The notes: generated by a model from the sequence alone, not told the origin. DNA of 32,000 bases from Erysipelotrichaceae bacterium (GCA_030604855.1 JAUVVC010000003.1:60001-92000), one strand, 5' to 3'; positions 1 through 20,905 are shown, numbered from the stretch's first letter. Numbers and translations are program-made.

Positions 1-1
1 T

Positions 2-1436: not shown

Positions 1437-1440
1437 AATT

Positions 1441-2716: not shown

Positions 2717-2910
2717 AGTCTGTCTCCATCGCTCTTAAGCGTTCTAACATATACATTTTATGCAGTTATCGCTGTATTATTCCATTTAAAAAATATACCT
2801 TGCATTAAGAAATGCTAAATCAAGGTTTGTATTATTTTTTCATATTTAGATATTAAACTACGAATACGTCCATATAATATGGCAGATATAACCTATCAGA
2901 GGAGCGTTCT

Positions 2911-3240
2911 ATGAAAAAAGCAGCTGCAGTTAAAGTTTTACAAATCCGTCTTGAAGAGTATAAATTCAAGCGGTTGGAAGAAGAAGCCAAGAAATCTGGT
3001 GTTTCCATGAGTGAATATGCTCGTGAGATTATCTTTGGCGATGAAGAACCGTTCGATGCGCGGGAGCTCAATAAAAAATATCAAGAAACTATTGAGGGTG
3101 AGTGCTTAAAATATCTAAAAAATAGCATCGAAACTATGAGCCTCGCGGAGTTTATCAGTTTGAAGGCTTTCTTAAAGCGTCGAAAGAAAGAAATGAAAGG
3201 CGATGAGTTCATGCAACTGCCGTTTAATCTCGAGGAATAA
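2911..3240 (+). CDS. Ribbon-helix-helix protein, MobC/CopG-like (109 aa)
   Basis: RBS AGAGGAG. The N-terminal sequence VKVLQIRLEEYKFKRLEEEAKKSGVSMSEYAREII is a typical RHH motif (beta strand plus two helices). Stop codon is TAA. Confidence 0.6.
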   Translation: MKKAAAVKVLQIRLEEYKFKRLEEEAKKSGVSMSEYAREIIFGDEEPFDARELNKKYQETIEGECLKYLKNSIETMSLAEFISLKAFLKRRKKEMKGDEFMQLPFNLEE

Positions 3241-3242
3241 CC

Positions 3243-5765
3243 ATGAAAGCGAAACTGAAATGACTCGGGGTATTTACAACAATTATCTTTTTATTATCGA
3301 TGAACTTTGCACCCGTCTACGCGGGAGGGAAAAATCAATATTTTTTATCATTTCTCTATAGCACCGATTCTCGAACATTCGGTTCGATTGTCGTTCCAAC
3401 TGTTGGACGAGATAACATGGAGGATAAGTATTCCTTTCTAGATTCAACCGATGCATTACTCTTTCTTTCCATTGATGGTTCGGGAGCCATTAGCGTTCCT
3501 GGCGAGATGAAAGCCGGGACATATCTCGAAAAACACCCATATACATTTCCTGAATTCTACGATGTTGACGGCACCCAAGCGGATTACGCGATGGGATTGA
3601 ATACAGGAAACGCCCTTACGAAATCATTGAATAATGCGATTTCATTCGTATTAAAGCCCGTGACCGCGGCTGGCCGTAAAGAGCTTGGCGTTGAGTTGCC
3701 GGCAACCGTATTTGGGTTAGCAACCGCGATTTCGAACTCGGGGTATGATGTTTTATATAATAATATAAATGTATTTAAATCGTATACCTATGGCGGCAAG
3801 CTCAAATGAGAAATAAAGCAAGCGTCCGTAGAGGACATGAAGACGGTTAAGAACGTGCTTCAAGGCTCGACTCATAAAGACTATGTCGTGATTAAAAACC
3901 ATAAAGGTGACACTGTAACGCTTCCTTACGCGGTTCCGAAAGGTTATGCGGAAGGACAGGAACTTTACGCCCAGCAGAGCACACAGGTTCCCTTAAGCAC
4001 GATTACCCAGAAGTTATCATGGGGACACGTTGTCTATTTATCTTCAGAACAACTCAAAAACGGAGTCACCGTTCAAAATAACAGCCAAATGAAACAGCAA
4101 GACTTTATCAGTAAAGCGGTTGGTGAATTCCTGAATAATTTCATCAGTGGCATCGCGAGTGCATTAGGACTTTACGATGTTGAAGAATTGATGTTCAACG
4201 CTGGAAACCGTGGCGCAACCCATTACTTTGGAATTATGCCACTCAGCTGGTTGAATCCAGTTAATATCCTGAATTTAATTGCAACCGTTATTTCGATGGT
4301 TGTTATCGGGATTTCAATTATCCGCATGTTGATTAAACGAAACATGGCAGCCATTAGCCCGAGCATTAAAGTTGAGTTGATGGATGGTGTAAAAGACCTA
4401 TTCATCGTTGCGACTGGCATCATGTTGTTTATGCCGGCATTATTTATTTTATTGAACTTTAACAACGTCATTGTTGCCGCGATGCGAGACATGGCACCGA
4501 GTGGAGTGACCTTAGGGTTAACATCCGGTGGGGATTTCATTGGAATCGTAGCCGCAGTCATGAATTTCGCGTATTTCTTCATTATCGTCATGCTGAACAT
4601 TACTTATATCACCCGTGCGGTGACCCTGGCCATTCTCATTGGGTTCGCACCATTCTTTATTAGCATGTTTGCTGCTGGACCGGCAGCCAAGAAGATTTCA
4701 GGCACATGGATGAAGGAATTGGTTTCGAATATCTTCATGCAGACGTTCAATGCAGCATTACTTTTAGTCTTCTCGAACATTGGTTCATTCGGAGGCTTGT
4801 CGGTCATTGAAAAGTTCGCATTATTAATCAGTTTCCTTCCATTGACGAAGTTCTTTAAAACATCATTGATGAATCTCGGAAGTGGTTCTGATGCCGCCGC
4901 CGATAAAACCGCTGGTGCATTCTCATCGTTTGCAACTGGTTTAGTGGCCGGCGGACTACACGCTGGCTTCGATGGGAAATCCGAAAAGAAAGGGAAAATC
5001 GTTCCTGCTGGTGGCGAAACGAATGTTAGTGCACCGACCGCTGACGGCACCGTTCCAAGTGCCAATGTGTCCGCTGAAGGAAATAATACAAAAGATTCCT
5101 TCCGTGGAAGTCTCTCTAAGACCTTTAAGAACGCGACTGCTAAAGGAGAAGGAAAACGTCTTCTCGGGAAGACAGCCGGAATGATGGCCGGTGCTGGATT
5201 ATCCTTGGGTTCAGCCGCAACCGGTGGAAGCCCATTACTTGGTAACTCAGCCTTATTTTCAGGCGCACAGTCGATTGTCAACCAAGCAGAAGGATGGCTA
5301 ATGCATGATGATGCGCCGAGTGGACCTGCAGTTGATAGCATGACCGGCGCCGACATGAAAGACATGGGGGTTTCCGGATTCGATAACGAGAATATCGTTC
5401 TAAACCCTACGGTTCGTGGAAACATCAATGAAAGCCCAGAATCGAGAAGTGAATTCGTTGAAAGCATCAATCAATACAACGAAAAGCCTGAAAATATGAA
5501 CAAACCGGTTGAAATTCTCTATAAAGACAATGGAAAAGACGTCTATGGCGTGAAAATTCCAGGCGTCAAAGGAAAGACCGTAACCCGAAAAGACCCAAGC
5601 ACAGGTCGAGCAATTGCGAGTGAAAGTAAATTCACTGGCGGTGCAAATCTTCAGAATTTCAAGCCTGTTTTAAGTAAATACACTAAGGAGAAAGAAAAAG
5701 AGCCAGCTAAACCAGTTGACTTAAGTAAATTTGGAAGTATCGACCAAGATACATCCGGAACCTAA
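3243..5765 (+). CDS. Large envelope protein, 840 aa in code 4: signal peptide, ectodomain, polytopic TM core resembling VirB6/TrbL-type T4SS proteins, G/A/S-rich and K-rich tail
   Basis: The start ATG AAA GCG AAA CTG AAA TGA CTC encodes MKAKLKWLGVFTTIIFLLSMNFAPVYA, a signal peptide. The TGA at 3807 joins track ORFs 3300-3809 and 3837-5765 in the same frame with no TAA/TAG between them. There are at least 6 hydrophobic helices between about 4230 and 4870. Confidence 0.75.
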
Positions 5766-5783
5766 TCCGGAGGGGAGAATCTT

Positions 5784-7715
5784 ATGAAATGAGTTTTTAG
5801 AACATTAGCACTGATAGCGTTGATAATGGTGTCGACGCTATCGGCTACCGAAGACGTTCACGCCGCCGAAAAGAGTCTGAATACCAGTATGGTCATTCAG
5901 TTCTCAACCGAAATCCAATACAGTGCGAATCTAAAGGACTTTAAGATTGCACTTTCATATTTAATGTATCCTTCTGCTAACCCCGGAAATCAGCTTAGAG
6001 AAACCGTTTTACTCGATAATGGGACATCCATTTCGCGTAAATCCAATACCTTAAGCGTCTATGTTCCAGGAGCCGATGGCATCGAATATACGGGGAATTT
6101 CTCGTTCGACTATTCGTATAATAGCGCGACAGGAAGTTTATCTGTGAATGGTTCGTCTGTTCCACTGAACAGCAGCACATACATCAATGCGAATGCTTAC
6201 CCTGAAGCCTACGTGAATGCCGCCGTAGTTGGTGTGGGAATGAATCCACAACCGTTCAATTTGGTAAAAGCTTTTACCGGCATGTCTGACAGCCAAATCA
6301 CTGCATTCAATGCGAGAGCCAATGGCGAAATTACGGATAATTTAGTGTTGGCATCCAGCATCTATGGAACCAATATCCAGACGAATACGAAATTGACAAT
6401 GTTCGTTAACGTATGGAAGCGTAGACCCGATGGGACTTATGATAAATCCCAAGCAGCAACTCGTGTTCAGGTTATCTACACCGCAGCCGACTTAATGAAT
6501 GGGAAAGCCCAATCCGCGAGCTGGACTGGCCAGCAGTATTTCAGACAGCTCGTAGGAGCGAGAACGGCAAGTCATTATTCCAAAACGAAGACTGATGTAA
6601 TCTCAACGGGTAAGTTTAGATATGAATATCAGGTTCAGGACTATATTCGAACTGATTATTCGTGGGGGTTCAACGGAAGCATAGGTTCAGTGAGCGGAAT
6701 CACGAATGGAGTCTGCTATCCGAGTGCAACCAAGAAGTGCTTTACGACTTTTTATAAATACACAAGATACCAAATCAAATGTTCGAACTGGTGAAGAACA
6801 TCCTTCTCTTATGGATGGAGCGCATCGAGTTCTGTTGGTGATTCGTGGTGTAAATCGAATACGAGCCAACCCTATTATCGTTCTGTAAACTCATCAGAAA
6901 CGACTGATTGAACAACGATGAGTTCGTTCAACGGAAGAAGCAGAACGGCAACTGGACATACTTATCAGACGCGTATTGGAACGATGGTTTGGGGTGCGCC
7001 TTACTGGCAATTCTTCGCGCCGAGTGCGGAGCAAAGACATTTATCAACAAATAAAGTTGAATTAAAAGATGTGATTTACACACCTTATTATCGAATTGAA
7101 GAAAACAGCGTATCAGTTGACCCTGTTGATAAAATCACCGAAGGGGAAGTAAATAGTCGTGTGAATACGTATGCGGCCGGAGCGGTGGATGTTTTAGTGC
7201 TTAGAAAGAACGGACACAATCCAGAATTGCCTGTTTCTACCTATAATTCATATGCTTCTGCTGTTAGAGTTGAAGCTACGAATTTGGCAAATTCAAGCTT
7301 CAGAGAAGGCCATTATTGAGGTTTGTATCTGTATCTGACCGGACACTGGAGAGCTGTTGAGGTTCCAGTTGGTTGGTTTAGCTTATCCGCAAACACGAGC
7401 AGTGGCACGATTCTTTCTGGATACTACGATGATACGATTATTACGCCGCCATTACCGGACCCAGATACCGAAACTGAAATTGCACTCGTTGATTTCACTT
7501 ACGTTGAAAGCGTGTTTAAGCAATTAAAGGCACAGTATCCAAGCTATACGCTCAATGCAGTTCAAGATAAACTCATTGAAGCTCTAAGAGCCGATGGGAA
7601 CAACGCCGCGAAGAAAACTGTCGCTCTTCACGATAGTTATATCGAAGAGGGAATGACGAAATCCAATGTATTCATTACGATTAGCAGCGATTTAAATATC
7701 AATTTAAAGGACTAA
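5784..7715 (+). CDS. Secreted protein of unknown function, 643 aa in code 4 (sense TGA at 5790, 6792, 6909, 7317)
   Basis: RBS GGAGGGGAG lies 6 nt before ATG 5784. The N-terminus MKWVFRTLALIALIMVSTLSATEDVHA is a signal peptide. Track ORFs 5820-6794, 6918-7319 and 7323-7715 share one frame, and I checked the gaps codon by codon for TAA/TAG. Stop codon is TAA at 7713. Confidence 0.8.
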
Positions 7716-7807
7716 TGCAAGGTTTTGCCATAGTTTTTTATAAAATGACTATATTACTTTATTGAACAATATAATTATATTATAATATAAATATATTAAA
7801 AAAACAC

Positions 7808-9118
7808 ATGGAGATGGAAATGAACATCAAGAAAATCCTTACAATCCTTACACTCATTGTACTCGCGCTTAGCGCGGGTGCTTTGGTGTATTTCAACACT
7901 AAGACGGATGTCGTCCTAAATGGCGACCCGGTACTCACCAACACTACCAACAATGAAATTAAAGAACCTGTCAAGGTGAATAACGGCAAGAAGCTTTCTT
8001 GCTACGATTTTATTAACACCTTACTTGAGAAGGATGGGTTCACGCATCTTGAAGGAACAAAGTGGAGCAGAGGGGAAAACAATTTTTTCATCTTTGATTT
8101 GGAGAAGGAAGAATTCCAAATTGCCGACGCTTACCATACCGATGTTCTTCCGAGCGAATGGTATAAAAATGAATATGAAAAATATGTGAGCTTCATTTAT
8201 CGAAACGAAACACGAGTATTGGACTTTATGAGTTTTGATGGAGCATCTGTTTACGTTGCCTTTTCTATGGATAATAAAGAACTTAACGATACTGAAAATG
8301 GTTTCTATGACTTCCCGATTTGGATGGACTACTATTTGACTCAATTCGAAACTTATGGTTGTTCTTATAATCCTGAATTTAAGACTCAACTTTCAACAGC
8401 AACTGTAGAGGATGTTATTTCTGTTTTTGATGTGAAATCAACCGATGGCGTCATACGGTATTTTAACGACGTCCATGTCGAAGGGGATGTAAAAGACCAC
8501 CCGCGCTATATCGAGGTCCAGAGCTTTGAAGAGTTTCACAAGGTAAAGGATGAGTATGGGTTTGAAATTATGTACATGTTCAATATTATCAGCAGCAACA
8601 AAGGCAAAGTCTTTGAAACTGAATCAGACCACCTTCAGGCTAGTATCATTGAGGAATTCGTAAAGGATGTTGTATACCCTAATATTCCGGAACGAAACGA
8701 TGCTAAACAAGTCGAAACGCTTGGTATATATTTCATCGATATTGATAACCCAAATGGCAATTTTAAAAGCCTGTACAAAGCGCCAACAAAAGGAGTTCCT
8801 TTCTATTATGAGCCAGAACTTGTCGGTAAAGATTTAAGAAAACTAAGCACCCCTTACGAAGGAACCGTTATAGGTGCCAATAAGAATACCTCGACAACCT
8901 ATGATTACACCCCGTTTAGTGTCTCTGACATCCAGAATGTCTTGGATGATTACATCAGACGAATCAATGCTGTCAATGCTTCGGTTTCCTTCTCAGACGA
9001 CTTCATCCGTAACTACACCCGCCCATTTGCGTACGAATGGCAGAAGCAGATGGGGTTGACTGAACTGTTCAATAAAAAGTATGGTTTTATTGACCACAGC
9101 ATTGTATACTTGAATTAA
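7808..9118 (+). CDS. N-terminally membrane-anchored protein of unknown function (436 aa; 432 aa if ATG 7820 is used)
   Basis: Long intact ORF with an AT-rich promoter region upstream. GGAG lies 6 nt before ATG 7820. TM helix ILTILTLIVLALSAGALV. All 4 Trp codons are TGG and there is no TGA. Confidence 0.75.
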   Translation: MEMEMNIKKILTILTLIVLALSAGALVYFNTKTDVVLNGDPVLTNTTNNEIKEPVKVNNGKKLSCYDFINTLLEKDGFTHLEGTKWSRGENNFFIFDLEKEEFQIADAYHTDVLPSEWYKNEYEKYVSFIYRNETRVLDFMSFDGASVYVAFSMDNKELNDTENGFYDFPIWMDYYLTQFETYGCSYNPEFKTQLSTATVEDVISVFDVKSTDGVIRYFNDVHVEGDVKDHPRYIEVQSFEEFHKVKDEYGFEIMYMFNIISSNKGKVFETESDHLQASIIEEFVKDVVYPNIPERNDAKQVETLGIYFIDIDNPNGNFKSLYKAPTKGVPFYYEPELVGKDLRKLSTPYEGTVIGANKNTSTTYDYTPFSVSDIQNVLDDYIRRINAVNASVSFSDDFIRNYTRPFAYEWQKQMGLTELFNKKYGFIDHSIVYLN

Positions 9119-9180
9119 TTTCTACAAGAAATCATTGTCTCTGTAAATAAGCAAGTGTTAAAAGAATTTATGCAAAAGTC

Positions 9181-9208
9181 TTGAAATCTAGTATGTTTGT
9201 ACTATAAT
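9181..9208 (+). promoter_or_regulatory. Sigma-70-type promoter of the antitoxin RNA
   Basis: TTGAAA (9181-9186), 16-nt spacer, TATAAT (9203-9208). Confidence 0.6.
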
Positions 9209-9238
9209 GAAGATGTAGTTAAGCATACTTCGCAAGAT

Positions 9239-9342
9239 GATGACGTGTGACGGTTCCGACACGTCGGTAAAATAAAAGTGACCGAGCGAAGATGACGTGT
9301 GACGGTTCCGACACGTCGGTAAAATAAAAGTGACCGAGCGAA
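9239..9342 (+). repeat. 2 x 52-nt perfect tandem direct repeat (GATGACGTGTGACGGTTCCGACACGTCGGTAAAATAAAAGTGACCGAGCGAA), with partial copies at both flanks
   Basis: Copies 9239-9290 and 9291-9342 are identical base for base. Each contains the hairpin GACGTGT...ACACGTC and an A-rich single-stranded tract. Confidence 0.95.
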
Positions 9343-9351
9343 GAAAGTATT

Positions 9352-9378
9352 GGGAAACTCTAAGTTTCCCATTTTTTT
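9352..9378 (+). terminator. Intrinsic terminator between the antitoxin repeats and the toxin gene
   Basis: GGGAAAC-tctaa-GTTTCCC hairpin followed by ATTTTTTT. Confidence 0.8.
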
Positions 9379-9400
9379 AGAAAAAAAGTGGGGGAATATT

Positions 9401-9868
9401 ATGTTTGATTACGAAATTCGAGAACTTACTACTACTTTCTATTTGGCATACCCAAGTTCCAAGTACAGTGAAATTGTGACCAAGAATATTCGACCATATG
9501 ATGTTGCGGTGTTTGACACACCAGAAGACTTCTATATTTGCATTCCTTTCAGAAGCTATATAAGGCATTCTTATTGCTACCATTTTAAGCATTCGATGCG
9601 CAGCCAAGTTAAACAATCTGGGCTAGATTATACAAAAATTGTTATTGTGAAGAATGAGTCTTACATTGGGAAATGTACAGTTGTCGATAATGATGAAGCA
9701 AAAGAGCTCAGAATGAATGCAGTTAATATTCACAAAGATGCACTAAAATATGTTAATGGTTATATAAATCATTTGAAGGGTACAAAAATACTCGCTAGTG
9801 AAGAATTTAATCGTAGGTATAAATATACAACACTGTCTTACTTTCATGCAGAGCTAGGGATAGAATAA
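9401..9868 (+). CDS. Type III toxin candidate (ToxN/AbiQ/CptN-like endoribonuclease), 155 aa
   Basis: RBS GGGGGAA lies 7 nt before ATG 9401. The size and the position directly after the repeat RNA and terminator fit a type III toxin. The family call rests on architecture; sequence identity was not verified. Confidence 0.6.
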   Translation: MFDYEIRELTTTFYLAYPSSKYSEIVTKNIRPYDVAVFDTPEDFYICIPFRSYIRHSYCYHFKHSMRSQVKQSGLDYTKIVIVKNESYIGKCTVVDNDEAKELRMNAVNIHKDALKYVNGYINHLKGTKILASEEFNRRYKYTTLSYFHAELGIE

Positions 9869-9876
9869 TTAACATG

Positions 9877-9900
9877 AACACCTCGAAAAAGGTGTTTTTA
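9877..9900 (+). terminator. Terminator of the AACACC/GGTGTT family
   Basis: AACACC-tcgaaaaa-GGTGTT followed by TTTA. Confidence 0.7.
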
Positions 9901-10160
9901 ATTTTCCGAAAAATAACGGGTAGATTTTTTGTTAGACATTTAGACTTTCTAGTGAAATTTTCTACGATTTTTGAAGGACTTCTCTTGAAAAAAACTAATA
10001 AAAAGCGCAAAAATGCCCTAAAAGTGCTCAAGAAACCCTGTTTTAAGTCAAAATCCCGTCAGGCTCAGAACCCGACGACATTTTAGAAGCCGATATTTTT
10101 GAAGGGGATAATTCATTAATTACTTATATTTCTCTCTTGGAAAATCTATATTGAAAACAG

Positions 10161-10251
10161 GAATATAAAAGGGGAAAAGAACGACGGAAACGATTCAGCC
10201 CCCCGTGTTTCAAGAAAACAATTAGGCCAAAGAGCCCCAGGAGGTTGTTTT
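10161..10251 (+). promoter_or_regulatory. Conserved leader, copy 1 (most diverged)
   Basis: ATAAAAGGGGAAAAGAACGACGGAAACGATTCAGCCCCCC ... GGCCAAAGAGCCCCAGGAGG followed by ATG. Confidence 0.6.
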
Positions 10252-10596
10252 ATGGAAGAGAAGTATTTATTTGATGATGAAGAAGAAGAGATTATAATTC
10301 CATCTAAGGAGCTTATTAAACGGCTGATTGCGGAGTACGGAATCAACAGAAGTGATATAACGTCATTTCTCTATGATGTTTCTAAGGGACAGGTTGACGG
10401 TTTCTGTCACGGAAGTCGTTTTAGAATTTCTTCCGATTACGAATATCTAAAGCGACATGATGTTCTTTCACATCTTTATATTGATAGGGATGACATCGGA
10501 CATTATATCTACACGGAAAAATTCTATGATGACGTCAAGAACATCATTCATTCCTTATTTAGAGAAGCCGAACTGCAATTCATCTCAAATAATTAG
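10252..10596 (+). CDS. Small acidic hypothetical protein (114 aa)
   Basis: ATG lies 7 nt after RBS AGGAGG. Stop is TAG, followed at once by a terminator. No Trp codon. Confidence 0.7.
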   Translation: MEEKYLFDDEEEEIIIPSKELIKRLIAEYGINRSDITSFLYDVSKGQVDGFCHGSRFRISSDYEYLKRHDVLSHLYIDRDDIGHYIYTEKFYDDVKNIIHSLFREAELQFISNN

Positions 10597-10619
10597 AAAC
10601 GCCGTAATGGCGTTTTTTT
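10597..10619 (+). terminator. Intrinsic terminator
   Basis: AAACGCC-gtaat-GGCGTTT followed by TTTT. Confidence 0.75.
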
Positions 10620-10660
10620 ATATTGTTATAATATAGAGAATCGTTGAGTAGAATAATGCA

Positions 10661-10742
10661 TCAAATAAAAAGGGGAAAGAACAGGAAACGTTCGCCCCCT
10701 TTATTGGACACAATAAGCCAAAATAAGGCGGGAGGATGTTTT
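10661..10742 (+). promoter_or_regulatory. Conserved leader, copy 2
   Basis: CAAATAAAAAGGGGAAAGAACAGGAAACGTTCGCCCCCTTTATTGG ... GCCAAAATAAGGCGGGAGG. A TGTTATAAT extended -10 box lies upstream at 10623-10631. Confidence 0.65.
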
Positions 10743-11033
10743 ATGGAAGAGCTATATTTATTTGAGGGTTTTAATTTTACGCACAAAGAATTGCAAGTGA
10801 TTGAGAAGGTTAGAGAACAGAAATTCACAATTCAGAACTTCATTATGTTCTTCGGGTTCAACCGCACCAACGAGTTAATCCAAGCTAAGGTTCTAGGTGT
10901 CACTGGCAAGAACGAAAGAGGCGACGACTTGTATGGTTTTATTTTCTTTAATGAGAAAACGATGTCCTTTTCCTTACTTGGTTTACTTGTAAAAATTTCA
11001 CTCGAGAATCAATTCGGTAAATTACCCGAGTAA
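10743..11033 (+). CDS. Small hypothetical protein (96 aa)
   Basis: ATG lies 7 nt after RBS GGGAGG. The upstream part of track ORF 10644-11033 is the leader. Stop is TAA, then a terminator. Confidence 0.7.
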   Translation: MEELYLFEGFNFTHKELQVIEKVREQKFTIQNFIMFFGFNRTNELIQAKVLGVTGKNERGDDLYGFIFFNEKTMSFSLLGLLVKISLENQFGKLPE

Positions 11034-11047
11034 GCCTTCGAATATGA

Positions 11048-11072
11048 GAACACCAGAATAATGGTGTTTTTC
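11048..11072 (+). terminator. Terminator of the AACACC/GGTGTT family
   Basis: GAACACC-agaataat-GGTGTTT followed by TT. Confidence 0.75.
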
Positions 11073-11120
11073 TTTGTTTCATCGTTATAATACAAAAAAT
11101 CATTGAGTATAATGGGAATA

Positions 11121-11199
11121 TCAATAAAAAAGGGGAATAAACAGGAAGCGTTCACCCCTTTATTGGATTATAAGCCAAAATAAGGCGGGAGGATGTTGT
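11121..11199 (+). promoter_or_regulatory. Conserved leader, copy 3
   Basis: CAATAAAAAAGGGGAATAAACAGGAAGCGTTCACCCCTTTATTGG ... GCCAAAATAAGGCGGGAGG. Confidence 0.65.
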
Positions 11200-11514
11200 G
11201 TGGATTGCGAAGTGGTAGAGGCAGTAGAAGAGGTTGAAGAAGAATTTAAGGGTGTTGATTGAGAATTTATCGCTCAGCTTCATAACAGAACTGCAGCCGA
11301 TATTAGAGAATTCGTTTCGATTCTCGCGGAAGAAGAACAGATGACGAAACACCTATCATTTAGACTTGTCGATGATGATTTCTCTGGTCTCGGCGTGATG
11401 GTTTCATTTCGCGAAATGACAGAGTATAGTGAGTTATTTCGTTCGTTCTGTATTTTTTTGAAAGTCTCGGGATATACCTTTAAGAGTATCTGAAACCCGA
11501 AGCTTAAAGACTAA
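11200..11514 (+). CDS. Small acidic hypothetical protein, 104 aa in code 4 (GTG start; sense TGA at 11260 and 11491)
   Basis: The GTG sits at exactly the position of the ATG in leader copy 2 (GGGAGGATGTTGT-GTG versus GGGAGGATGTTTT-ATG). The frame is open to TAA 11512, and a terminator follows at once. The standard-code ORF track misses this gene. Confidence 0.65.
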
Positions 11515-11537
11515 GAACACCTGAAAAGGTGTTTTTT
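11515..11537 (+). terminator. Terminator of the AACACC/GGTGTT family
   Basis: GAACACC-tgaaaa-GGTGTT followed by TTTTT. Confidence 0.75.
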
Positions 11538-11594
11538 ACTGTATTATTTTTTATTATCCTTATATTTTTAAGGTTTCGATTATAGAATACAGTA

Positions 11595-11690
11595 TCAAAT
11601 AAAAAAAGGGGAACGAAAACTGGAAACATTCACCCCTTTTGTTTTGATTTGAAACACAAAACAAGGCCAAAAGAGCCGGGGAGAATGTGT
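11595..11690 (+). promoter_or_regulatory. Conserved leader, copy 4
   Basis: Nearly identical to copy 5 apart from one hairpin loop: AAAGGGGAACGAAAACTGGAAACATTCACCCCTTTTGTTTTG-loop-CAAAACAAGGCCAAAAGAGCCGGGGAGAATGTGT. Confidence 0.7.
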
Positions 11691-12044
11691 ATGAGAATGA
11701 ATATGGAATTCGTCAGTGGATTAAACGTGTTGGAGCAGTCCTGAATCAGGGATTCTCTACACGAACGCATCGAGCAGATTATAATGGAAAGCAAGGCGGA
11801 AGTTTTCGCTTTCGACGGCTGTCATAAGATTTATCTAATCGAGGATGAGAACGACATTGAAGAGGCGCGCAAATACGGATACGACATTTATCGTATCGAA
11901 CGCTTGGAAAGTGCCTTTCGACACAGTTGCTCAATGCGGTTCATTCAGGATTGGAATTTTAAAAAGTCCTATATTAAACAGTTTGAATTTATTGATGTTG
12001 TTGAACAAAAGGAGAAAGAAAATGAGATTTCCTTCACTGATTAA
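11691..12044 (+). CDS. Small hypothetical protein, 117 aa in code 4 (sense TGA at 11742)
   Basis: ATG lies 7 nt after RBS GGGGAG. Track ORF 11784-12044 is the C-terminal part in the same frame. Confidence 0.65.
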
Positions 12045-12303
12045 AGAAGCGAATATTTTTATTCCGACTATTGGCGAGAATTATAATCACACACTTGAAT
12101 ACATCAAGGATGACGTGTTAGATTATGCCGTTGACTTCGATATATACTATCGTGTTAACTGTTCTAATTCCGAAGATGGTAAGAGCGTAAATGTTCGAAT
12201 AATGTGTAAGACCGAACGTGAGTCTGAAGAAGCACTGATGTTCATCGGTTATATTCTTCAGTCTTATCCAGGAATGACCTGTTCGTACTCGAATGAAGAA
12301 TAA
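12022..12303 (+). CDS. Small acidic hypothetical protein (93 aa)
   Basis: RBS AAGGAG lies 7 nt before ATG 12022. It overlaps the previous gene end by 23 nt. The 5' part of track ORF 11845-12303 is an out-of-frame overlap. Confidence 0.6.
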   Translation: MRFPSLIKEANIFIPTIGENYNHTLEYIKDDVLDYAVDFDIYYRVNCSNSEDGKSVNVRIMCKTERESEEALMFIGYILQSYPGMTCSYSNEE

Positions 12304-12326
12304 AACACCAGTAAAATGGTGTTTTT
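12303..12326 (+). terminator. Terminator of the AACACC/GGTGTT family
   Basis: AAACACC-agtaaaat-GGTGTTT followed by TT. Confidence 0.75.
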
Positions 12327-12374
12327 CTTATTTTTATCATTATAAATCAAATAATTCATGCATATAATTGAATA

Positions 12375-12466
12375 TCAATAAAAAAGGGGAACGAAAACTG
12401 GAAACATTCACCCCTTTTGTTTTGAGAAACGCAAAACAAGGCCAAAAGAGCCGGGGAGAATGTGTG
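12375..12466 (+). promoter_or_regulatory. Conserved leader, copy 5
   Basis: Same sequence as copy 4 apart from the hairpin loop (agaaacg versus atttgaaaca). The distance from GGGG to the start codon differs by 2 nt, so the frame differs between the two copies. Confidence 0.7.
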
Positions 12467-12688
12467 ATGAAGAGAGCAGTTAAGGTTTTTGGTATTTTAA
12501 TGAATACCATATTAGGAGAAAACAACGAGTCTTTTGAAGAAGAAATGGCATTTGCAGATGCTGTTACGGCTTGAGAGCGCGGAGAAGGTGCTTTAATTAG
12601 AGAAGAAGCCCACAAAGCATCACAAGAAGAGCGATTGGCTTATTTAGATGACCAACACGAATTAATGATGGAATACTTAGGTGCATAG
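12467..12688 (+). CDS. Small acidic hypothetical protein, 73 aa in code 4 (sense TGA at 12572)
   Basis: ATG follows RBS GGGGAG. The frame is open to TAG 12686. Confidence 0.6.
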
Positions 12689-12690
12689 TT

Positions 12691-12954
12691 ATGAAAAGAA
12701 ACTATCAATTAACCGAAAAGCATTTCGAATTCGTCGATGGAAAATGAGTCTTGGTTCGTCCGGAATCTGTTGAAGTTGTTAATCACGAGTATTACCAAAA
12801 TTGTGTTTCTAAAGAAGCGATTAAGTTCTTTAGAGCATTAGGCGGTAAAGAAAACTTAATCTTTAAAAACGGGAAAGCGATTTTGGCCAGTGTCAGTCCT
12901 AATGGATTGATGAAAACTGTTAGAACGTTCGAAACGTTGGATTTTGAGGATTAA
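12691..12954 (+). CDS. Small hypothetical protein, 87 aa in code 4 (sense TGA at 12745)
   Basis: ATG lies 2 nt after the previous stop. Track ORF 12751-12954 is its C-terminal part in the same frame. Confidence 0.6.
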
Positions 12955-12956
12955 GC

Positions 12957-13220
12957 ATGACGTACAATGGAAAAAGCTACGCACGCATCTGTCCGAATCT
13001 ATTCGGGGAGCTGACGTTGAATGGCGAAGCTCTAAAAGCCGGCGATTATATCGCAATTCTTAGACTCGAAAAAGAAGAGCCTTATGAGGAGTTTGACACG
13101 GTTTTCTTTGGACATGTCGGTTACACAGACCGAAAAGCATTCCAACTTGAGAACTGCTGACCGCACGACCCGGAGGTTGAGGTATATGGACTATGAGCCG
13201 GAATACCTGAAAAGGATTAA
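12957..13220 (+). CDS. Small hypothetical protein, 87 aa in code 4 (sense TGA at 13158 and 13194)
   Basis: ATG lies 2 nt after the previous stop. Read-through ends at TAA 13218, 8 nt before a terminator. Confidence 0.55.
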
Positions 13221-13228
13221 TTAAACAC

Positions 13229-13251
13229 AAACACCAGAAATGGTGTTTTTT
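13229..13251 (+). terminator. Terminator of the AACACC/GGTGTT family
   Basis: AAACACC-agaaat-GGTGTT followed by TTTT. Confidence 0.75.
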
Positions 13252-13390
13252 AGTGCTTTTTAGGCGGTTTCCTATGTATTAAGGTATTTGTTCGTCTTCC
13301 TTCGAAACACCCCGAAAACAGGTTGTTTGACGCCCAAATAGGGGTGGCGGCTCAGGGGGAAGGATAATAGATTAAAAGGATAACACTTTC

Positions 13391-13500
13391 TTTAATATAA
13401 CTTTTATATTAAACTGTAAATATATCAAAATATATCAATTCAACCCTTAAAGCACCCTTTTTACCCGTTAAAGTTATAGAATACATATAATATAAATATA
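13391..13500. promoter_or_regulatory. AT-rich iteron/inverted-repeat region upstream of parA (candidate centromere-operator)
   Basis: Inverted repeat TTTAATATAA-ctt-TTATATTAAA (13391-13413). Direct repeat TATATCAA at 10-bp spacing (13421-13428 and 13431-13438). ACCCTTAAAG / ACCCGTTAAAG repeats. TATAAT at 13486-13491. Confidence 0.45.
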
Positions 13501-13540
13501 TTTAAATATATGGCTCAACAAGAGCTGAGGAGATATGATT

Positions 13541-14314
13541 ATGGGTAAAATTATCGCGTTAGCGAATCAAAAGGGTGGTGTTTCGAAGACGACATCATCC
13601 GCATTAATGGCCTATGGCCTTCATCATCGAGGTTTTAAAGTTTTATTGGTGGACTTAGACCCACAGCGGAATCTTTCAAAAAATATGAACGCGAAGACAA
13701 CCGGAGACGTTAAAACTTCCATGGAGCTACTTCTAGGGACGGCGACGGCGGAAGAAGCAATCCAGCACCTACCGTATTTCGACATCATCCCAGCGAAGAA
13801 AGAATTGGCTAGTATTGAGCCATTAATGCCATTGTCTGGTCGATTAAAAAAGCTTAAGAAGGGTTTAGCAGCCGTAAAGGACAAATATAATTATATTATT
13901 TTAGACACTGCACCGTCCCTAGGGGTACTTTCTGTAAACGCATTAGTGGCAGCGGATGAAGTTATTGTCCCGTCCACTGCTTCCGTATTCTCAATTGAAG
14001 GGTTTTTGGACTTTTTCCAGAATGTCAGAGACGTACAAGAGGACGATAACCCTGACTTAGTTATTAGAGGCGTACTCATCACCATGTTCAACGGTCGAGC
14101 CGTGATTTCAAAAGAATTGGCAGAAATGACAAAAACGCTCAGCGATAAATTCGATGTTAAAACCTTTGATTCTAAAATCCGCAGCTCAGTCTTCATTTCC
14201 GAGAGCCAAGTGCACCGATTCGACCCGTTCGTTGTCGACCCGAAAAACATCGTATGCCAAGACTTCAATAATTTCTTAGATGAATTTTTAGAAGGAGGAG
14301 CTCAAAATGGCTAA
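13541..14314 (+). CDS. parA: ParA/Soj-family partition ATPase
   Basis: Deviant Walker A motif KGGVSKTT near the N-terminus, and ILDTAPS (Walker B-like). GAGGAG lies 8 nt before ATG 13541; the track start at 13535 is too close to the RBS. Confidence 0.9.
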   Translation: MGKIIALANQKGGVSKTTSSALMAYGLHHRGFKVLLVDLDPQRNLSKNMNAKTTGDVKTSMELLLGTATAEEAIQHLPYFDIIPAKKELASIEPLMPLSGRLKKLKKGLAAVKDKYNYIILDTAPSLGVLSVNALVAADEVIVPSTASVFSIEGFLDFFQNVRDVQEDDNPDLVIRGVLITMFNGRAVISKELAEMTKTLSDKFDVKTFDSKIRSSVFISESQVHRFDPFVVDPKNIVCQDFNNFLDEFLEGGAQNG

Positions 14315-14789
14315 GAAAACACCCATACCTACAGACCGCTTCATGGAAGAAGAGGATATCCCACTCTATAAGCGCGCGGCTGGAATGAAAGCACAACAAG
14401 AAGAAAAACCTGTTGAGCCCAAGCCGAAAAAGGATAAGCCGAAGAAATCCAGTCCCGGAAATGATTTAGTCTTTTGTATGTTTAGGCTTAGACCAGACCA
14501 GATAGAAGCACTCGGTATTCTCTACGCGAAAACTCGTGCGAACGTATCCGGAATGGTACGCGACGCTCTAGAAGCGTATCTAAGCGATTATCTTACCGAA
14601 AAGATAACCAAGGTTCATATTCCGCTTGAATCGAACCAGACGGCTGGAAATGCGCTGGAGACGAAAGGGATTCGATTAAGCCCTAGACTCATCGAAGCGG
14701 TTGGAATTGTTGCTGTTTCCAACGGAGTTAACCGGAGTGAAATTGTTCGATTCGCGATTGATGAATTTTTAGCTAAAAAAGACGCCTAG
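14307..14789 (+). CDS. Tandem ribbon-helix-helix DNA-binding protein, probable centromere-binding partner of ParA
   Basis: Overlaps the parA stop by 8 nt. Lys/Pro-rich linker. Two RHH-like units (FRLRPDQIEALGILYAKTRANVSGMVRDALEAYL and IRLSPRLIEAVGIVAVSNGVNRSEIVRFAIDEFL). Confidence 0.65.
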   Translation: MAKKTPIPTDRFMEEEDIPLYKRAAGMKAQQEEKPVEPKPKKDKPKKSSPGNDLVFCMFRLRPDQIEALGILYAKTRANVSGMVRDALEAYLSDYLTEKITKVHIPLESNQTAGNALETKGIRLSPRLIEAVGIVAVSNGVNRSEIVRFAIDEFLAKKDA

Positions 14790-14800
14790 AAGGCGTTTTT
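14782..14800 (+). terminator. Intrinsic terminator overlapping the stop codon
   Basis: ACGCCT-aga-AGGCGT followed by TTTT. Confidence 0.7.
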
Positions 14801-14840
14801 AATTGGTTAATCGATTGATATAATAGGCTATACTTAGTAT

Positions 14841-15416
14841 ATGGAAATTAATGTTGTTGCCAATAATAAAGCTATCGTCTCATATGACAACGGTACTGAA
14901 ATTAAGATACCTTCACAGATGTTTCCTTTAAATGGTGAGCTAAAGCTTTTTACATCGAATAATACAGAGAATTTAACGGATTCAACGATTGAGTCTATAT
15001 TCAATTCTGTAAAGCCAAGAATGGGTAAATGTTATTATAACGCCCAGGACTTAATTGATGCCTTGATTGTTGGCGGTATTGACTCGAAACGCATAAAATC
15101 CTATGTAGGTTGGCTATTTGTTGGGGATACGAGACCAGTTCATCACTGTTTTGTTATGCTGGACGACAAACATGTTCTGGATTATGGACCCTTGAAGCTG
15201 TTTGAAAATTTTGATGAGTACACAGATATGGATTCACTCGATAGATTCAAGAATGACATCATTGAGAATGATGTGCTATTGAATTCACAGAAGATGACCT
15301 TCGGAAGAGCGCTGAACGTGATTGCCTATGTCGTTTCAGAGTGTAGCCCCAAAGAAGGCGAGAAGATACGAGCGAAGCTCGAAAAAGCTTACCCAAAGCA
15401 CATCAGTTTTCTTTAG
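14841..15416 (+). CDS. Hypothetical protein (191 aa)
   Basis: Intact ORF. TATAAT lies about 15 nt upstream and there is no clear RBS. Its single Trp codon is TGG. Confidence 0.55.
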   Translation: MEINVVANNKAIVSYDNGTEIKIPSQMFPLNGELKLFTSNNTENLTDSTIESIFNSVKPRMGKCYYNAQDLIDALIVGGIDSKRIKSYVGWLFVGDTRPVHHCFVMLDDKHVLDYGPLKLFENFDEYTDMDSLDRFKNDIIENDVLLNSQKMTFGRALNVIAYVVSECSPKEGEKIRAKLEKAYPKHISFL

Positions 15417-15429
15417 GTATCATGAAATG

Positions 15430-15455
15430 TAATTAGAATCCGCGGATTCTAATTA
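15430..15455. repeat. 26-bp perfect palindrome TAATTAGAATCCGCGGATTCTAATTA
   Basis: Read directly and self-complementary over all 26 nt. No T-run follows. Confidence 0.9.
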
Positions 15456-15496
15456 GAGCTTAATCATTATGCATTAAAAACATACTGTAAAACCAT

Positions 15497-15518
15497 GAAC
15501 ACCGAAAGGTGTTTTTTT
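15497..15518 (+). terminator. Terminator of the AACACC/GGTGTT family
   Basis: GAACACC-gaaa-GGTGTT followed by TTTTT. Confidence 0.75.
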
Positions 15519-16793
15519 GTTGTTTTCTAGGAGAAACCAGGGTCTATGCGTATCTAGATAGTGCACCCTTGGCTTAATGCAGGGTTTAGTCCATTGAAAT
15601 CTATGAAAAAGTTATAAATGACTTAGAGCCGCAATATGATGCGGCAAACAAATAAATAAAAAAACCAGTTGTCTCATTAGAATTTAGAGTTCTAAAAAGG
15701 CGACCTAGGCAATCTCGTACATTGCGTTGGTGTTTAACTAGTTGTCTTCATTATACACAGAAGAAAACGAAATATAACTAAAACCCTGTTGTAAACCTCG
15801 AGAAATGCCACTCGGGGTTTTTATATCATGATTAAATCCCAATTTAGCTAGGTGAAAAACGTTGGGTTGAAATAGAGTGGGTTGGCAGCCCAAAGTGGAA
15901 CTAGGTAGATGAAAGAAGTGCTCCGGACATAGGGTTTTTCGCGTTGCGCCTATGTTCGGGCAAACCCGCGCAGTAATTCAGAAGAAGAGCGGGAGACAAA
16001 AACTATTCTGGGGCTACAAGAAGACCATTGAAAGCATATGTGTCTGGGAGCAGATTACTAAAAACATACAGTAATCGAAAATCATAAGGGCTAAGTTATT
16101 AAAACGTTGGTGAATACATTCAGCAAGACGTCTTTCGAAAGGAAGTTGACTTAGGATAACGCGAATAATACGGATACAACACGGAGACTTAACTCGACCC
16201 GAGGGAAGAATCATTGTCTAGATTAATCAATACCAGCAAAACTCTCAAGGGTTTTCTGCGTCCCGCTGAAAAGATTAAGCCGTTTCAAGCCGTTTCTTCC
16301 TCTCGCTCGGGAAGTTGGGAATGCCAAAGATAAGGCTGAAACGAAAAGAAAACAAAACATAATAGCAAAGCAGCGGACGCGATAGAAAGTAAGTGTAAAC
16401 GGAAACGATACAGAATGAGTTGGATTCCGAGTAATTAAAAAAGTTTTACTAGAATCGAAAGTTAAACAAAGGAACTTAGCAGTGTAGATAAGAGTTAAGT
16501 GATAATCAATCAATAATGAATAGATAATCAGTTAAGTCTAATCTAATAAATACATACTAAACTAAGAATGACTCAATTCAACCTAATAGAGCTTCTCGTA
16601 CAATAAAGTGATTCTTGACTAAAAACATTGATTTTGGAAATAATTTTCTAAAATTCACTTTGTGGCATACTTATGCGACACAATAAATAAGGGCCAATTT
16701 TACAAAGATTTCAAACAAAAATTGTTGTTTTATAAGTCAAGAAAATGATATATGATAGCATAAATTGGCTAGGTGCCGTAAAGGAGAAATGAG
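15519..16793. other. 1.3-kb ORF-free region with a GC-richer structured core (about 15840-16450); candidate large ncRNA or origin region
   Basis: TAA/TAG occur in all frames, and only two short, low-complexity minus-strand ORFs are present. Local and long-range helices are listed in the findings. Confidence 0.4.
15796..15822 (+). terminator. Intrinsic terminator inside the ORF-free region
   Basis: CCTCGAG-aaatgcca-CTCGGGG (one G-U pair) followed by TTTTT. Confidence 0.5.
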
Positions 16794-17222
16794 ATGAAGT
16801 ATAGTCTTTTTAACTATAAAGAATTTGACGAAAATGATTGCGAGTTCAGAATCAACACCTATATTGTCGACGGTATAAAGTTGAGTGAATTGGAATTTGA
16901 TTCACTCAGATATGCAAGTCCCTTCGGAGATAACCCAAGTGGTTTGTTCTTTTACAGTATTTCTAAATCAAGATTTAGAAAACTAGTGAAGTTAGGAGTT
17001 ATATTAAAGGACCATGATAGTCCATATAGAGCTATGTATGTTGTTGATAAAAATTTTAAAAGACGATTGGATGAAATTGCAAAAGAACTTAAAGAAATCA
17101 ACACAATGAGAAAAGCAGAGCAATGGTCGATTGACAATGGCTATGAGTTGCTAATAACGTACCAAACCATGATTGATGTTGATAAAATCATGGATGTCAG
17201 GAAGGAAGCAAGACCAATATAA
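16794..17222 (+). CDS. Hypothetical protein (142 aa)
   Basis: RBS AAGGAG lies 7 nt before the ATG. Intact ORF. Its single Trp codon is TGG. Confidence 0.65.
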   Translation: MKYSLFNYKEFDENDCEFRINTYIVDGIKLSELEFDSLRYASPFGDNPSGLFFYSISKSRFRKLVKLGVILKDHDSPYRAMYVVDKNFKRRLDEIAKELKEINTMRKAEQWSIDNGYELLITYQTMIDVDKIMDVRKEARPI

Positions 17223-17498
17223 AAGAAAATGCTTATAGGGAGTTTTCAATCTGATGTCTTGTTGAATGCTTTAAATTGATTCGATAAAAGATTCATAGAT
17301 TTGGGGGATTATGGTGAGATTAACTTGGTAATTTTTGACTTATTTTGTGCATTATGGATTATCGATGTAAATGGTCCTCTTGTTTAAGGTTGTGACCTGG
17401 CAATTGAGAAATACTGCGCTTTGAGTGATTGATTACTCAGTAACCATCTAGCTTCACAAATATAAGTAAGTGATACACTAGAAAAAAAAGAGGGAAAA

Positions 17499-20766: not shown

Positions 20767-20905
20767 AATTACCTTTCTATCGATGTGATGTATTTATCTT
20801 CTGGCAATGATGATCTCATTATTTGTTTCGAGCTTTGTATATTACATAAAATTCAAACAAGTCGTTTGTTTGTTGAGATGTTCTTCGTTCTTGTCAAGAA
20901 AGTTC

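Follow-up and report, generated by a model that had tools for sequence, protein, structure and literature searches.

The question raised by the locus described here is what one and the same leader sequence does when it stands, five times in succession, in front of different small genes. The locus is part of a 32,000-nt stretch of DNA from an Erysipelotrichaceae bacterium (GCA_030604855.1, JAUVVC010000003.1:60001-92000), which is called the window in the following and in which positions are counted from its first letter. The window is an Erysipelotrichaceae-like chromosome carrying an integrated mobile element, and between 10157 and 12466 this element holds five copies of a leader of 75-100 nt (~90 nt), each placed directly upstream of a gene cassette; the five cassettes encode eight small proteins without Pfam or PHROG assignment. 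The leader is an RNA family new to Rfam, with a job of a familiar type, and it is read here, tentatively and with a probability of roughly 45%, as a cis-acting RNA of the 5' untranslated region (5'-UTR) that would bury the 5' end of the transcript, keep the Shine-Dalgarno (SD) sequence open and hold a latent anti-SD segment.

Five leader copies in the window

An earlier note on this DNA had listed five copies of a conserved leader, each between a TATAAT-type promoter and a start codon, and both the number and the placement hold. The pattern AAGGGGAA-N10-30-CCCC matches five times in the 32 kb, always on the plus strand (at 10169, 10670, 11130, 11606 and 12384), where 0.03 matches are expected from shuffles, and a repeat finder and a direct reading of 9500-13500 recover the same families of leader and terminator repeats. 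The five-copy repeat is real and lies far beyond chance. Each of the five units is built to one plan, with a terminator hairpin, an AT-rich promoter of the sigma-A type, the leader, a strong SD and one to three small orphan genes. The leader itself (GC content 32-46%) begins with an A-tract and GGGGAA, followed by an interrupted hairpin that closes in CCCC, a T-rich stretch, a second hairpin and a short GC hairpin, after which come the SD and the start codon; the four parts of the shared core that had been listed before are all present in the window copies. The more specific description of the first hairpin, with a GGAAAC loop closed by GAAC/GTTC, fits the copies of the window but not those of related elements, where the inner part varies. 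The distances from GGGG to the ATG had been given in reverse order, as they amount to 83 nt for copy 4 and 81 nt for copy 5. No reading frame spans the window leaders.

A leader family in related elements

Relatives of the locus were located through a neighbouring protein of 436 amino acids, which led to 18 relatives with 39-64% identity, and the respective contigs (L106-L116) carry the same terminator motif and, downstream of the terminator, leaders of the same design. The family comprises 22 full copies in eight elements from different samples, namely the five of the window and 17 in seven related elements, and where the window has five cassettes, each relative has two to four. Two weaker leaders, both in L108, come in addition to the 22; the minimal leader of L108 (1990-2044) consists of the first hairpin (H1) and the SD only, with no U-tract. 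A covariance model (R1), which was built from three foreign copies (L110, L111) with an author-specified structure, detects all 22 leaders at full length, and in the window, with filters off, it finds exactly the five copies (E values of 4e-11 to 1.6e-4), the next best match having an E value of 0.06. Sequence conservation in the family is limited to the stem bases, the A and T tracts and the SD, and the apical part of H1 and the loop of the second hairpin (H2) vary in sequence and length.

Other searches returned little. An exact pattern, AAAAGGGGAA-N5-9-GGAARC-N4-7-CCCC, matched 98 times in the representative genomes of GTDB and 5 times in IMG/VR, in every case an unrelated hairpin or terminator without downstream modules; the pattern was too specific to the window, and the source genome lies outside the representative set. 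A blastn search of the region against phage and plasmid collections gave no match, protein-based scans of viral contigs with three queries gave none either, and a metagenome scan gave one locus; for the protein of cassette 1, no relative was found among 5.8 billion clusters. Rfam 15 has no match at gathering score in the window or in L105, a contig that extends the element to the left, and at E<=10 the region of 9.8-13.6 kb yields only sub-threshold chance matches, such as those to the L31-Firmicutes leader (gathering score 33.3), which reach 22 and 19 bits and fall on the H2-H3 region of copies 5 and 4. The earlier note had rightly assigned the leader to no known class.

The promoters of the five units consist of TTATAA or TTATAT, a 17-bp spacer and TATAAT, TAGAAT or TATATT, and their -10 box lies 11-18 nt before the A-tract. 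Throughout the family, a TATAAT-like hexamer is found 17-22 nt upstream of the G-run (22 of 22 copies), with T-rich DNA farther upstream, and the predicted start of transcription is probably 10-14 nt before the G-run. A lambda-Q-like reading of the two TATAAT-like boxes was rejected, since the upstream box lies exactly 17 bp from the -10 box and is, from this position, best read as a weak -35 box. Control by an antisense RNA was rejected as well, as a scan and a reading of the sequence found no conserved minus-strand promoter in the conserved part of the leader. The leaders are preceded by a terminator hairpin of the AACACC..GGTGTTTTT type, with AAACGCC..GGCGTTTTT as its equivalent ahead of copy 2; the terminator of the AACACC type that is nearest to copy 1 (9876-9897) lies ~225 nt upstream of the promoter. 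The terminator type AACACC..GGTGTTTT is conserved across the elements. The leader promoters of L109, L110 and L111 have the motif GTGATAC, or GTATCAC as its reverse complement, over the -35 region (~35-45 nt before the G-run); its orientation and its distance to the -10 box vary. The window copies lack this possible operator half-site.

A conserved fold of three hairpins

The leader is composed of three hairpins. H1, flanked by an A-tract and a T-tract, pairs an SD-like 5' arm rich in purines with a 3' arm rich in pyrimidines, H2 is AU-rich with a 5' arm that is rich in U and G in every member, and the third hairpin (H3) is a short GC hairpin that ends 0-4 nt ahead of the SD. Folded as single sequences, nearly all copies form H1, often lengthened by pairing of the A-tract with the U-tract, by which the predicted 5' end becomes buried; the SD is unpaired in the minimum free energy (MFE) folds of most copies, and the z-scores of whole leaders range from -0.7 to -6.2. 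In a structure-fitted alignment of the best 19 copies, 91.6% of the cells are paired as compared with 72.2 +/- 1.7 in shuffles, two-sided changes occur in 16 of 18 pairs, and there are 57 double-change cells where shuffles have 16.8 +/- 3.3; slid registers reach at most 61% pairing and at most 13 double-change cells. RNAalifold, which the earlier note had recommended for the aligned copies, recovers H1, H2 and H3 from this alignment; when the leaders were aligned with MAFFT (A1, A3-A5), the quality was insufficient and only five pairs were recovered.

A test that is free of any alignment was carried out with the segment from the C-run to the SD, delimited without pairing information and folded alone. 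In 18 of 22 leaders this segment forms exactly two hairpins side by side, the second of which ends at most 4 nt from the SD, as compared with 8.4% of dinucleotide shuffles (mean z -2.0). The stems themselves are written in many ways, H2 being closed by TTATTG/CAATAA, TTGTTTTG/CAAAACAA, TATTGTG/CACAATA, TCTGTT/AACAGA, TCTATTGA/TCAATAGA or TATATGA/TCATATA, and H3 by GGC/GCC, GCC/GGC, GCGC/GCGC, GGCC/GGCC, GGCT/AGCC, CCGA/TCGG, GGTT-GC/GC-AACC or GAC/GTC. In H1, two adjacent double substitutions distinguish GGGTGAA/TTCACCC (L110b) from GGTGGAA/TTCCAC (L110c) when the stems are compared locally without gaps. The fold of three hairpins is real, because the structure-fitted and the alignment-free tests both support it and because the stem sequences differ while pairing is kept. 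The hairpin with swapped GGC and GCC arms that had been described next to the SD is H3; it is real, but this was settled only by the relatives, as the five copies alone are ambiguous and are aligned differently by MAFFT. The second hairpin, attributed to every copy before, is generally found but is weak in copy 3.

With homologs elsewhere, hairpins that are kept despite sequence change and no conserved leader peptide, the leader is conserved at the level of RNA or DNA and not of a peptide, as had been proposed. A leader peptide had been considered, as short open reading frames (ORFs) begin inside H1 in some copies of L109 and L110, and was rejected, as they are absent from the window copies and from L109c. 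Between RNA and DNA, the excess of cells with G-U over cells with A-C on the sense strand (16 versus 7) is a weak pointer to RNA. In a reading at the DNA level, the hairpins would be an operator for a repressor of the element, or they would form in transferred single-stranded DNA, as a priming site or single-strand promoter of the kind found in leading regions of conjugative plasmids. H1 is near-palindromic, the element has NikA-like and TrbL-like genes and a ribbon-helix-helix (RHH) protein, and establishment genes are known to be preceded by regulatory DNA in several copies, as in the case of Frpo and of the operators of EGeRS2, one of the 'establishment gene regulatory sequences' (EGeRS1 and EGeRS2) of the pLS20-family conjugative plasmids of Bacillus (Val-Calvo et al. 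2021, PMC8708921). A role of this kind is nevertheless very unlikely, as the spacing from GGGGAA to TTC-CCCC varies (13, 13, 15, 15 and 17+ nt) and the stems change with compensation, unlike a fixed operator, and as the G-T cells exceed the A-C cells. The -35 and -10 boxes lie outside and upstream of all three hairpins in unpaired sequence, so that folding creates no promoter of the Frpo type. The leaders contain no Reg576-type or LexA-type boxes; the LexA Cheo box CGAAC-N4-GTTCG has one one-mismatch match in the window, at 4774 and thus outside the leaders, in which the corresponding spacing is at least 7 nt and variable. No relaxase, coupling protein or origin of transfer (oriT) was identified in the element.

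A proposed latent anti-SD segment

According to the preferred reading, terminator, sigma-A-type promoter, leader, SD and cargo would form a portable expression cassette that the integrative element uses for variable accessory genes. The transcript would begin ~10-14 nt before the G-run, and its first 45 nt would fold as H1, in which the purine arm (AAAAAGGGG/GGGTG-GAA) would pair with the pyrimidine arm (UUCNCCCC-UUUU) and the A-tract and U-tract would lengthen the helix nearly to the 5' end. H2 and H3 would fold next and bring the pyrimidine arm directly alongside the SD. In the intact transcript, the decoy partner would hold the pyrimidine arm, the buried 5' end would resist 5'-end-dependent decay, and the open SD would permit translation; when the 5' arm is lost in a first decay step, or is bound by a factor, the pyrimidine arm would close on the SD across the H2/H3 junction and translation would be turned off. 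The outcome would be a strong yet self-limiting expression of every cassette, independent of the cargo, and the leader would thus probably determine the stability and duration of accessory-gene expression.

In support of this, the polarity of the arms is identical in 22 of 22 copies, with the purine arm on the 5' side and the pyrimidine arm on the 3' side, and the linkers joining the anti-SD arm, H2, H3 and the SD have 0-4 nt only. The gene at 9398-9868 is headed by a minimal version of the same competing hairpins. The 3' arm, UUCNCCCC-UUUU, presumably resembles the 3' end of Firmicute 16S rRNA. Duplexes of the 3' arm of H1 with the leader SD have a mean of -10.6 kcal/mol as compared with -5.9 for 82 generic SD regions of the same loci, and opening of the SD takes a median of 1.4 kcal/mol in the full leader, a value that rises to 6.0 upon removal of the 5' arm of H1 and amounts to 2.8 when the 3' arm is scrambled in addition; in the MFE fold of copy 3, the 3' arm of H1 is itself paired with the SD. 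In silico, the leader thus has a segment complementary to the SD, a competing partner of that segment, and an SD accessibility that depends on this partner, as an SD-sequestering switch would require.

Several points weigh against this reading. The covariation count on which the fold partly rests depends on the alignment: a sequence-only model alignment (A9) has no excess covariation (71.2% paired versus 71.8% in shuffles), and there the slid-register control alone still favours the structure; this alignment scatters the stems over columns because stem length and register differ between members. The formal significance of the alignment-free test overstates independence, as the 22 copies are related. 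The helix of anti-SD and SD has 77.6% pairable cells in fixed columns, where shuffles have 79.3% and a shift by one register gives 77.2%, and 3 double-change cells where 5.9 are expected; this test has little power because the ribosome constrains the SD. Cognate arms and SDs pair hardly better than non-cognate ones (-10.6 versus -9.9 kcal/mol), the pairing is weak in L109b, L111a, L113a and L110b, and the complementarity could be explained by a pyrimidine run facing a purine-rich SD. No trigger of the switch was identified. The earlier note had suggested that the CCCC segment pairs either with the upstream GGGG or with the SD and thereby switches translation. Such a switch is physically plausible across the family by duplex and SD-opening energies, but covariation gives its evolutionary maintenance no support, as the helix of CCCC and SD pairs no better than shuffled or slid registers.

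If the likeness of arm and SD were incidental, the leader might be a constitutive stabiliser and insulator only, in which H1 protects the mRNA, H3 shields the SD from upstream sequence, every cargo ORF would be expressed to the same degree, and nothing is switched. In Bacillus subtilis, 5' stem-loops stabilise mRNAs such as those of aprE and ermC. In the leader, the SD is open in most predicted folds, the extended H1 reaches the predicted 5' end, the anti-SD helix is without covariation, and the minimal leader of L108 retains only H1 and the SD. This reading is unlikely, however, as a plain hairpin needs neither the strict arm polarity nor the SD-like 5' arm found in 22 of 22 copies, as the very short linkers set the pyrimidine arm beside the SD, and as the conservation of H2 is left unexplained.

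The T-tract behind H1 points to the main rival, which is a promoter-proximal attenuator. H1 and its U-tract would then be an intrinsic terminator ~45 nt past the start, mostly short abortive RNA would be made, and a factor of the element or the host that binds the nascent leader would block H1, so that one factor would govern all cassettes while the terminators at the cassette ends stay active. There are at least five A in the 8 nt before H1 in 22 of 22 copies and at least five T in the 8 nt after it in 20 of 22, directly against the G-C base of the stem, and these 20 have the G-C-based hairpin and immediate U-rich tract of an intrinsic, even a bidirectional, terminator; the tract fits a terminator as well as an extended helix and to this extent also counts among the points raised above. 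This terminator anatomy of H1, with A-tract, hairpin and T-tract, was absent from the earlier note. The 5' arm of H2, which is U/G-rich in every member, preserves a U-tract, a terminator scan calls H1 on the minus strand in three of the five window copies, a perfect 9-bp hairpin with U7 stands before the gene at 9398-9868, and EGeRS1 of pLS20 blocks transcription coming from upstream (PMC8708921). An attenuator is nevertheless doubtful. H1 is long and has internal loops and apical parts of 11-22 nt, unlike the short and perfect terminators of the cassettes, the U-tract is missing in copy 1, in L111c and in the minimal leader of L108 (1990-2044), and no cis antiterminator sequence is found upstream of H1. 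Blocking H1 would also free its 3' arm and thereby favour sequestration of the SD, which acts against expression, and the retention of H2 and H3 would be left without a role.

Modular exchange of cargo, leader and promoter

Copies 4 and 5 have a leader identity of 93%, with 65% for their promoters and 52% over the first 60 coding nt, and in L110a and L111d, which belong to different elements, the identity is 95% in the promoter, 96% in H1, 70% from H2 and H3 to the SD, and 57% in the coding sequence. The promoter of copy 4 is that of L114b (93%), yet the gene of L114b is a homolog of the gene of copy 5. Several cargo families recur behind differing leader variants, and the gene of cassette 2 has a homolog in L108 that is without a leader. 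Because of these mosaic identity profiles, the leader-less homolog and the recurrence of cargo behind differing leaders, cargo, leader and promoter are concluded to be exchanged at conserved sequences, with breakpoints within the leader, and in the preferred reading the conserved leader and terminator would double as recombination points that shuffle the cargo. For none of 18 leader-driven proteins is there a Pfam or PHROG family.

The copies are most alike within an element (4 and 5; 2 and 3), as would result from duplication or gene conversion, and the hairpins might accordingly be a functionless by-product of a promoter region that was duplicated along with the cassettes. This is disfavoured and extremely unlikely, as the architecture persists in eight elements whose marker protein has an identity of only 39-64%, as stem sequences were replaced with pairing kept, and as neither the promoter nor the coding sequence is as conserved as the leader.

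Layout of the cassette array

All features of the array lie on the plus strand. Its left edge is the terminator hairpin GAACACC..GGTGTTT with a T-run (9876-9897), which ends the preceding gene. Cassette 1 has a promoter with TTATAT, 17 bp and TATATT (10124-10152, read from the sequence and with a predicted start), the leader at 10157-10251 with H1 at 10171-10204 (GGGG..CCCCCC), H2 at ~10205-10221 (TGTTT/AAACA), H3 at 10225-10236 (GGC/GCC) and the SD AGGAGG at 10239-10244, a gene for an acidic protein of 114 amino acids (10252-10596) for which a protein search gave no relatives, and a terminator hairpin at 10595-10617. In cassette 2, the promoter (TTATAA, 17 bp, TAGAAT; 10626-10654) is followed by the leader at 10658-10742 with H1 at 10672-10699, H2 at 10701-10716 (TTATTG/CAATAA), H3 at 10717-10729 (GCC/GGC) and the SD GGGAGG at 10730-10735, and then by the gene for 96 amino acids at 10743-11033, whose leader-less homolog was mentioned above, and a terminator hairpin at 11046-11071. 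Cassette 3 consists of the promoter (TTATAA, 17 bp, TATAAT; 11085-11113), the leader at 11118-11199 with H1 at 11132-11158, a weak or ambiguous H2, H3 at 11174-11186 (GCC/GGC) and the SD GGGAGG at 11187-11192, a gene with a GTG start (11200-11514; 104 amino acids, two in-frame TGA) and a terminator hairpin at 11516-11537.

Cassette 4 begins with the promoter TTATAT, 17 bp, TAGAAT (11560-11588), the one that is 93% identical to the leader promoter of L114b; its leader at 11594-11690 has H1 at 11608-11636, H2 at 11639-11664 (TTGTTTTG/CAAAACAA), H3 at 11665-11677 (GGC/GCC) and the SD GGGGAG at 11678-11683, and two overlapping genes within 11691-12303, one at 11691-12044 (117 amino acids, one in-frame TGA) and one at 12022-12303 (93 amino acids), precede the terminator hairpin at 12302-12325. 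Cassette 5 has the promoter TTATAA, 17 bp, TATAAT (12340-12368), the leader at 12372-12466 with H1 at 12386-12414, H2 at 12417-12439, H3 at 12440-12452 and the SD GGGGAG at 12453-12458, and three genes within 12467-13220 (12467-12688, 12691-12954 and 12957-13220), each with in-frame TGA that is apparently read as Trp. The array is closed by a terminator hairpin at 13229-13250, upstream of the promoter region of ParA. An out-of-frame ATG is found 1-2 nt past the SD (GGAGGATGT or GGAGAATGT) at 10736, 11193, 11685 and 12460 and is kept in most leaders and relatives; it is too near the SD for a start and is complementary to ACAU of the 3' arm of H1.

The host element

The integrated element covers 1-18746 and ends in the gene of a tyrosine integrase (17499-18746), and overall it has ~20 kb or more; L105 extends it 5 kb leftward, where there is no additional leader. 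From ~18.9 kb rightward, the window is ordinary chromosome with genes for GH3, nucleoside hydrolase, CdaR, GntP, glycerate kinase and CopA, and the nearest named relatives of this glycerate kinase come from Erysipelotrichaceae bacteria. The element encodes ParA with an RHH protein (14307-14789), a NikA-like RHH protein, a DUF4326 protein, a multi-pass membrane protein of 840 amino acids and secreted proteins; the protein of L108 at the place of the membrane protein matches TrbL_3. The cassette array sits between the genes of the conserved 436-amino-acid protein and of the protein encoded at 9398-9868 on one side and parA on the other. A related element was found as an identical contig of 21,290 bp with permuted start in L111 and L112 (Logan SRR24302692 and SRR24302694), which suggests that it exists as a free circle, either a plasmid or an excised form, because the same contig was assembled with different start points.

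Several further features of the element were noted. Downstream of a strong promoter (TTGAAA, 16 bp, TATAAT; 9181-9208) lie two tandem 52-nt repeats (9236-9339; 98% identical, each with an inverted repeat) and then the perfect 9-bp hairpin with U7 (9351-9378). Its competitor is a 14-bp hairpin (9365-9395) in which the SD of the gene at 9398-9868 is buried. This gene encodes a phrog_8049-like protein, and its true start is probably the ATG at 9402 and not the TTG at 9350. The region 9181-9400 has no Rfam match and, judged by these features, looks like a separate attenuator or translational switch. Downstream of a terminator, at ~15630-15780, a conserved non-coding element marks the beginning of 1.3 kb that lack ORFs (15.5-16.8 kb); it has the motif AAAAAACCAGTTG at 15659, with counterparts in L107 (15434), L108 (13271) and L110 (16443), and its common motifs are AAATAAAAAAACCAGTTG, a variable hairpin, ACGACC-A-GCAAT...TTGC and TTTAACTAGTT. 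Rfam gave no match to this non-coding element, which could be an origin, an oriT or a non-coding RNA. In L105, positions 3600-4200 (~800-1400 nt left of the window start) form a ~600-nt GC-rich (~50% or more) non-coding stretch with many inverted repeats, upstream of a run of small genes and adjoining a pair of genes for a C5-methylase and a MutH-like protein; it has no Rfam match at gathering score and is reminiscent of EGeRS1 of pLS20, which is likewise long, GC-rich and structured. A BspA-type leucine-rich-repeat gene on the minus strand (1541-2716) is broken by five TGA, and the ORF on the plus strand is a spurious repeat ORF.

In-frame TGA codons

The genes of the element contain 16 in-frame TGA as compared with 34 TGG, and TGA is the stop codon in none of 19 element genes checked. 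Examples lie at 11260, 11491, 11742, 12572, 12745, 13158 and 13194, and further ones in 3243-5765 and 5784-7715; reading through TGA fuses three to four same-frame ORFs of translation table 11 into single proteins. In the flanking host genes (18955-31184) there are 0 in-frame TGA versus 24 TGG, and the host glycerate kinase ends at TGA with full Pfam coverage, its homologs having 375-378 amino acids. In the gene of copy 5, TGA36 aligns with TGG in the L114 homolog, and six homologs with an identity of only 29-45% keep TGA as TGA at the position 'EGKW(T)ING'. A search of the window and of 11 related loci for a suppressor tRNA gave none, and a search of the literature on recoding in Erysipelotrichaceae elements gave nothing relevant. 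From these codon patterns it looks like the element uses TGA for Trp in a host with standard code, or like a deliberately leaky TGA.

The TGA codons permit an extension of the preferred reading that is quite unlikely, in which the leader would be an undescribed class of RNA 'expression timer' and the TGA (Trp) a second layer of control, both together forming a two-level system for establishment or anti-defence genes in a hitherto uncharacterised family of ~20-kb elements of Erysipelotrichaceae. The hairpin of decoy SD and anti-SD at the 5' terminus would hold each cassette in the ON state for as long as the transcript is intact. The first nucleolytic cut, or a factor of the element that recognises the invariant AAAAAGGGG arm, would turn all cassettes off together, and the second layer would be the conserved in-frame TGA near the N-termini of the cargo proteins, with the host reading TGA as stop.

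Relation to known systems

Three-segment SD switches in which the anti-SD has a partner of its own are known from the refolding of hok mRNA, from erm leaders and from RNA thermometers. As in these, a pyrimidine segment of the leader is complementary to the SD and has two alternative partners, the SD itself and a purine segment farther upstream; in contrast to them, the leader has no conserved peptide, no ligand pocket (the loops are variable) and no antisense promoter, its default is apparently ON, and the alternative helix is without covariation. The conserved unpaired core of a riboswitch, which would form the ligand pocket, was not found either, as the loops vary across the leaders. In Bacillus, 5' stabiliser stem-loops and STAB-SD sequences are known from aprE, ermC, cryIIIA and phage SP82, and they share with the leader a stem-loop at or near the 5' end, an SD-like purine tract and a Gram-positive host, but they are single elements of single genes, whereas the leader is a multi-copy family in which the SD-like tract is paired in H1 and two more hairpins follow. 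Intrinsic terminators and attenuators have the A-tract, G-C-based hairpin and U-tract in common with the leader; H1, however, lies ~15 nt past the predicted start, its stem is long and interrupted, there is no cis antiterminator, and two members lack the U-tract.

The nearest concept is that of EGeRS1 and EGeRS2, and the PeSL (early promoter plus stem-loop) cassettes of T4 are close as well. Both EGeRS and the leader are multi-copy conserved regulatory sequences of a Gram-positive, transferable element that lie directly upstream of the ribosome-binding sites of separate, small and variable operons, the genes of which are mostly of unknown function. EGeRS1 is predicted to be highly structured, blocks read-through, and is 420-750 bp long and GC-rich (51%) without a constitutive promoter, whereas EGeRS2 contains a strong sigma-A promoter with dual heptamer operators TTATCCCnnTTATCCC for an RHH repressor (PMC8708921). 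The leader differs from EGeRS1 by its 75-100 nt, its GC content of 32-46% and its conserved -10 box, and a blastn search (word size 11) of 9000-14500 against the 72,556 plasmids of PLSDB gave no match and hence no similarity to EGeRS1, for which an identity to the pLS20 sequence of more than 60% of the nucleotides would be expected. The EGeRS2 motif TTATCCCnnTTATCCC, with up to 3 mismatches, has 3 matches where 3.3 are expected, none of them near a leader. In contrast to pLS20, the host is Erysipelotrichaceae-like and the element is small and integrative, and a role of the cargo in establishment or anti-defence, for which genes such as ardC with transient expression upon transfer would be typical, is putative. 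The PeSL of T4-type phages (PMC2839356, PMC4122927) are composite, conserved promoter-terminator motifs on either side of small orphan ORFs in a hypervariable region, where they serve as recombination points in the shuffling of modules, and the present cassettes likewise have a conserved terminator and mosaic breakpoints at terminator, promoter or leader. PeSL consist only of a terminator stem-loop and an early promoter, however, with no conserved multi-hairpin 5'-UTR, and host, element and sequence differ as well.

Significance

If functional, the leader would be a compact (~90 nt), portable and cargo-independent natural expression module of Gram-positive mobile elements and a new family of cis-regulatory RNA for Rfam, and its design with a decoy SD and an anti-SD would have a potential use in synthetic biology of Firmicutes. 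It would also mark an accessory regulon, possibly one for establishment or anti-defence, in a poorly known family of elements, and it may be used for finding unknown cargo genes, as in the case of EGeRS in pLS20 plasmids. Shuffling at leader and terminator would be a concrete mechanism for the turnover of orphan genes outside T4-type phages.

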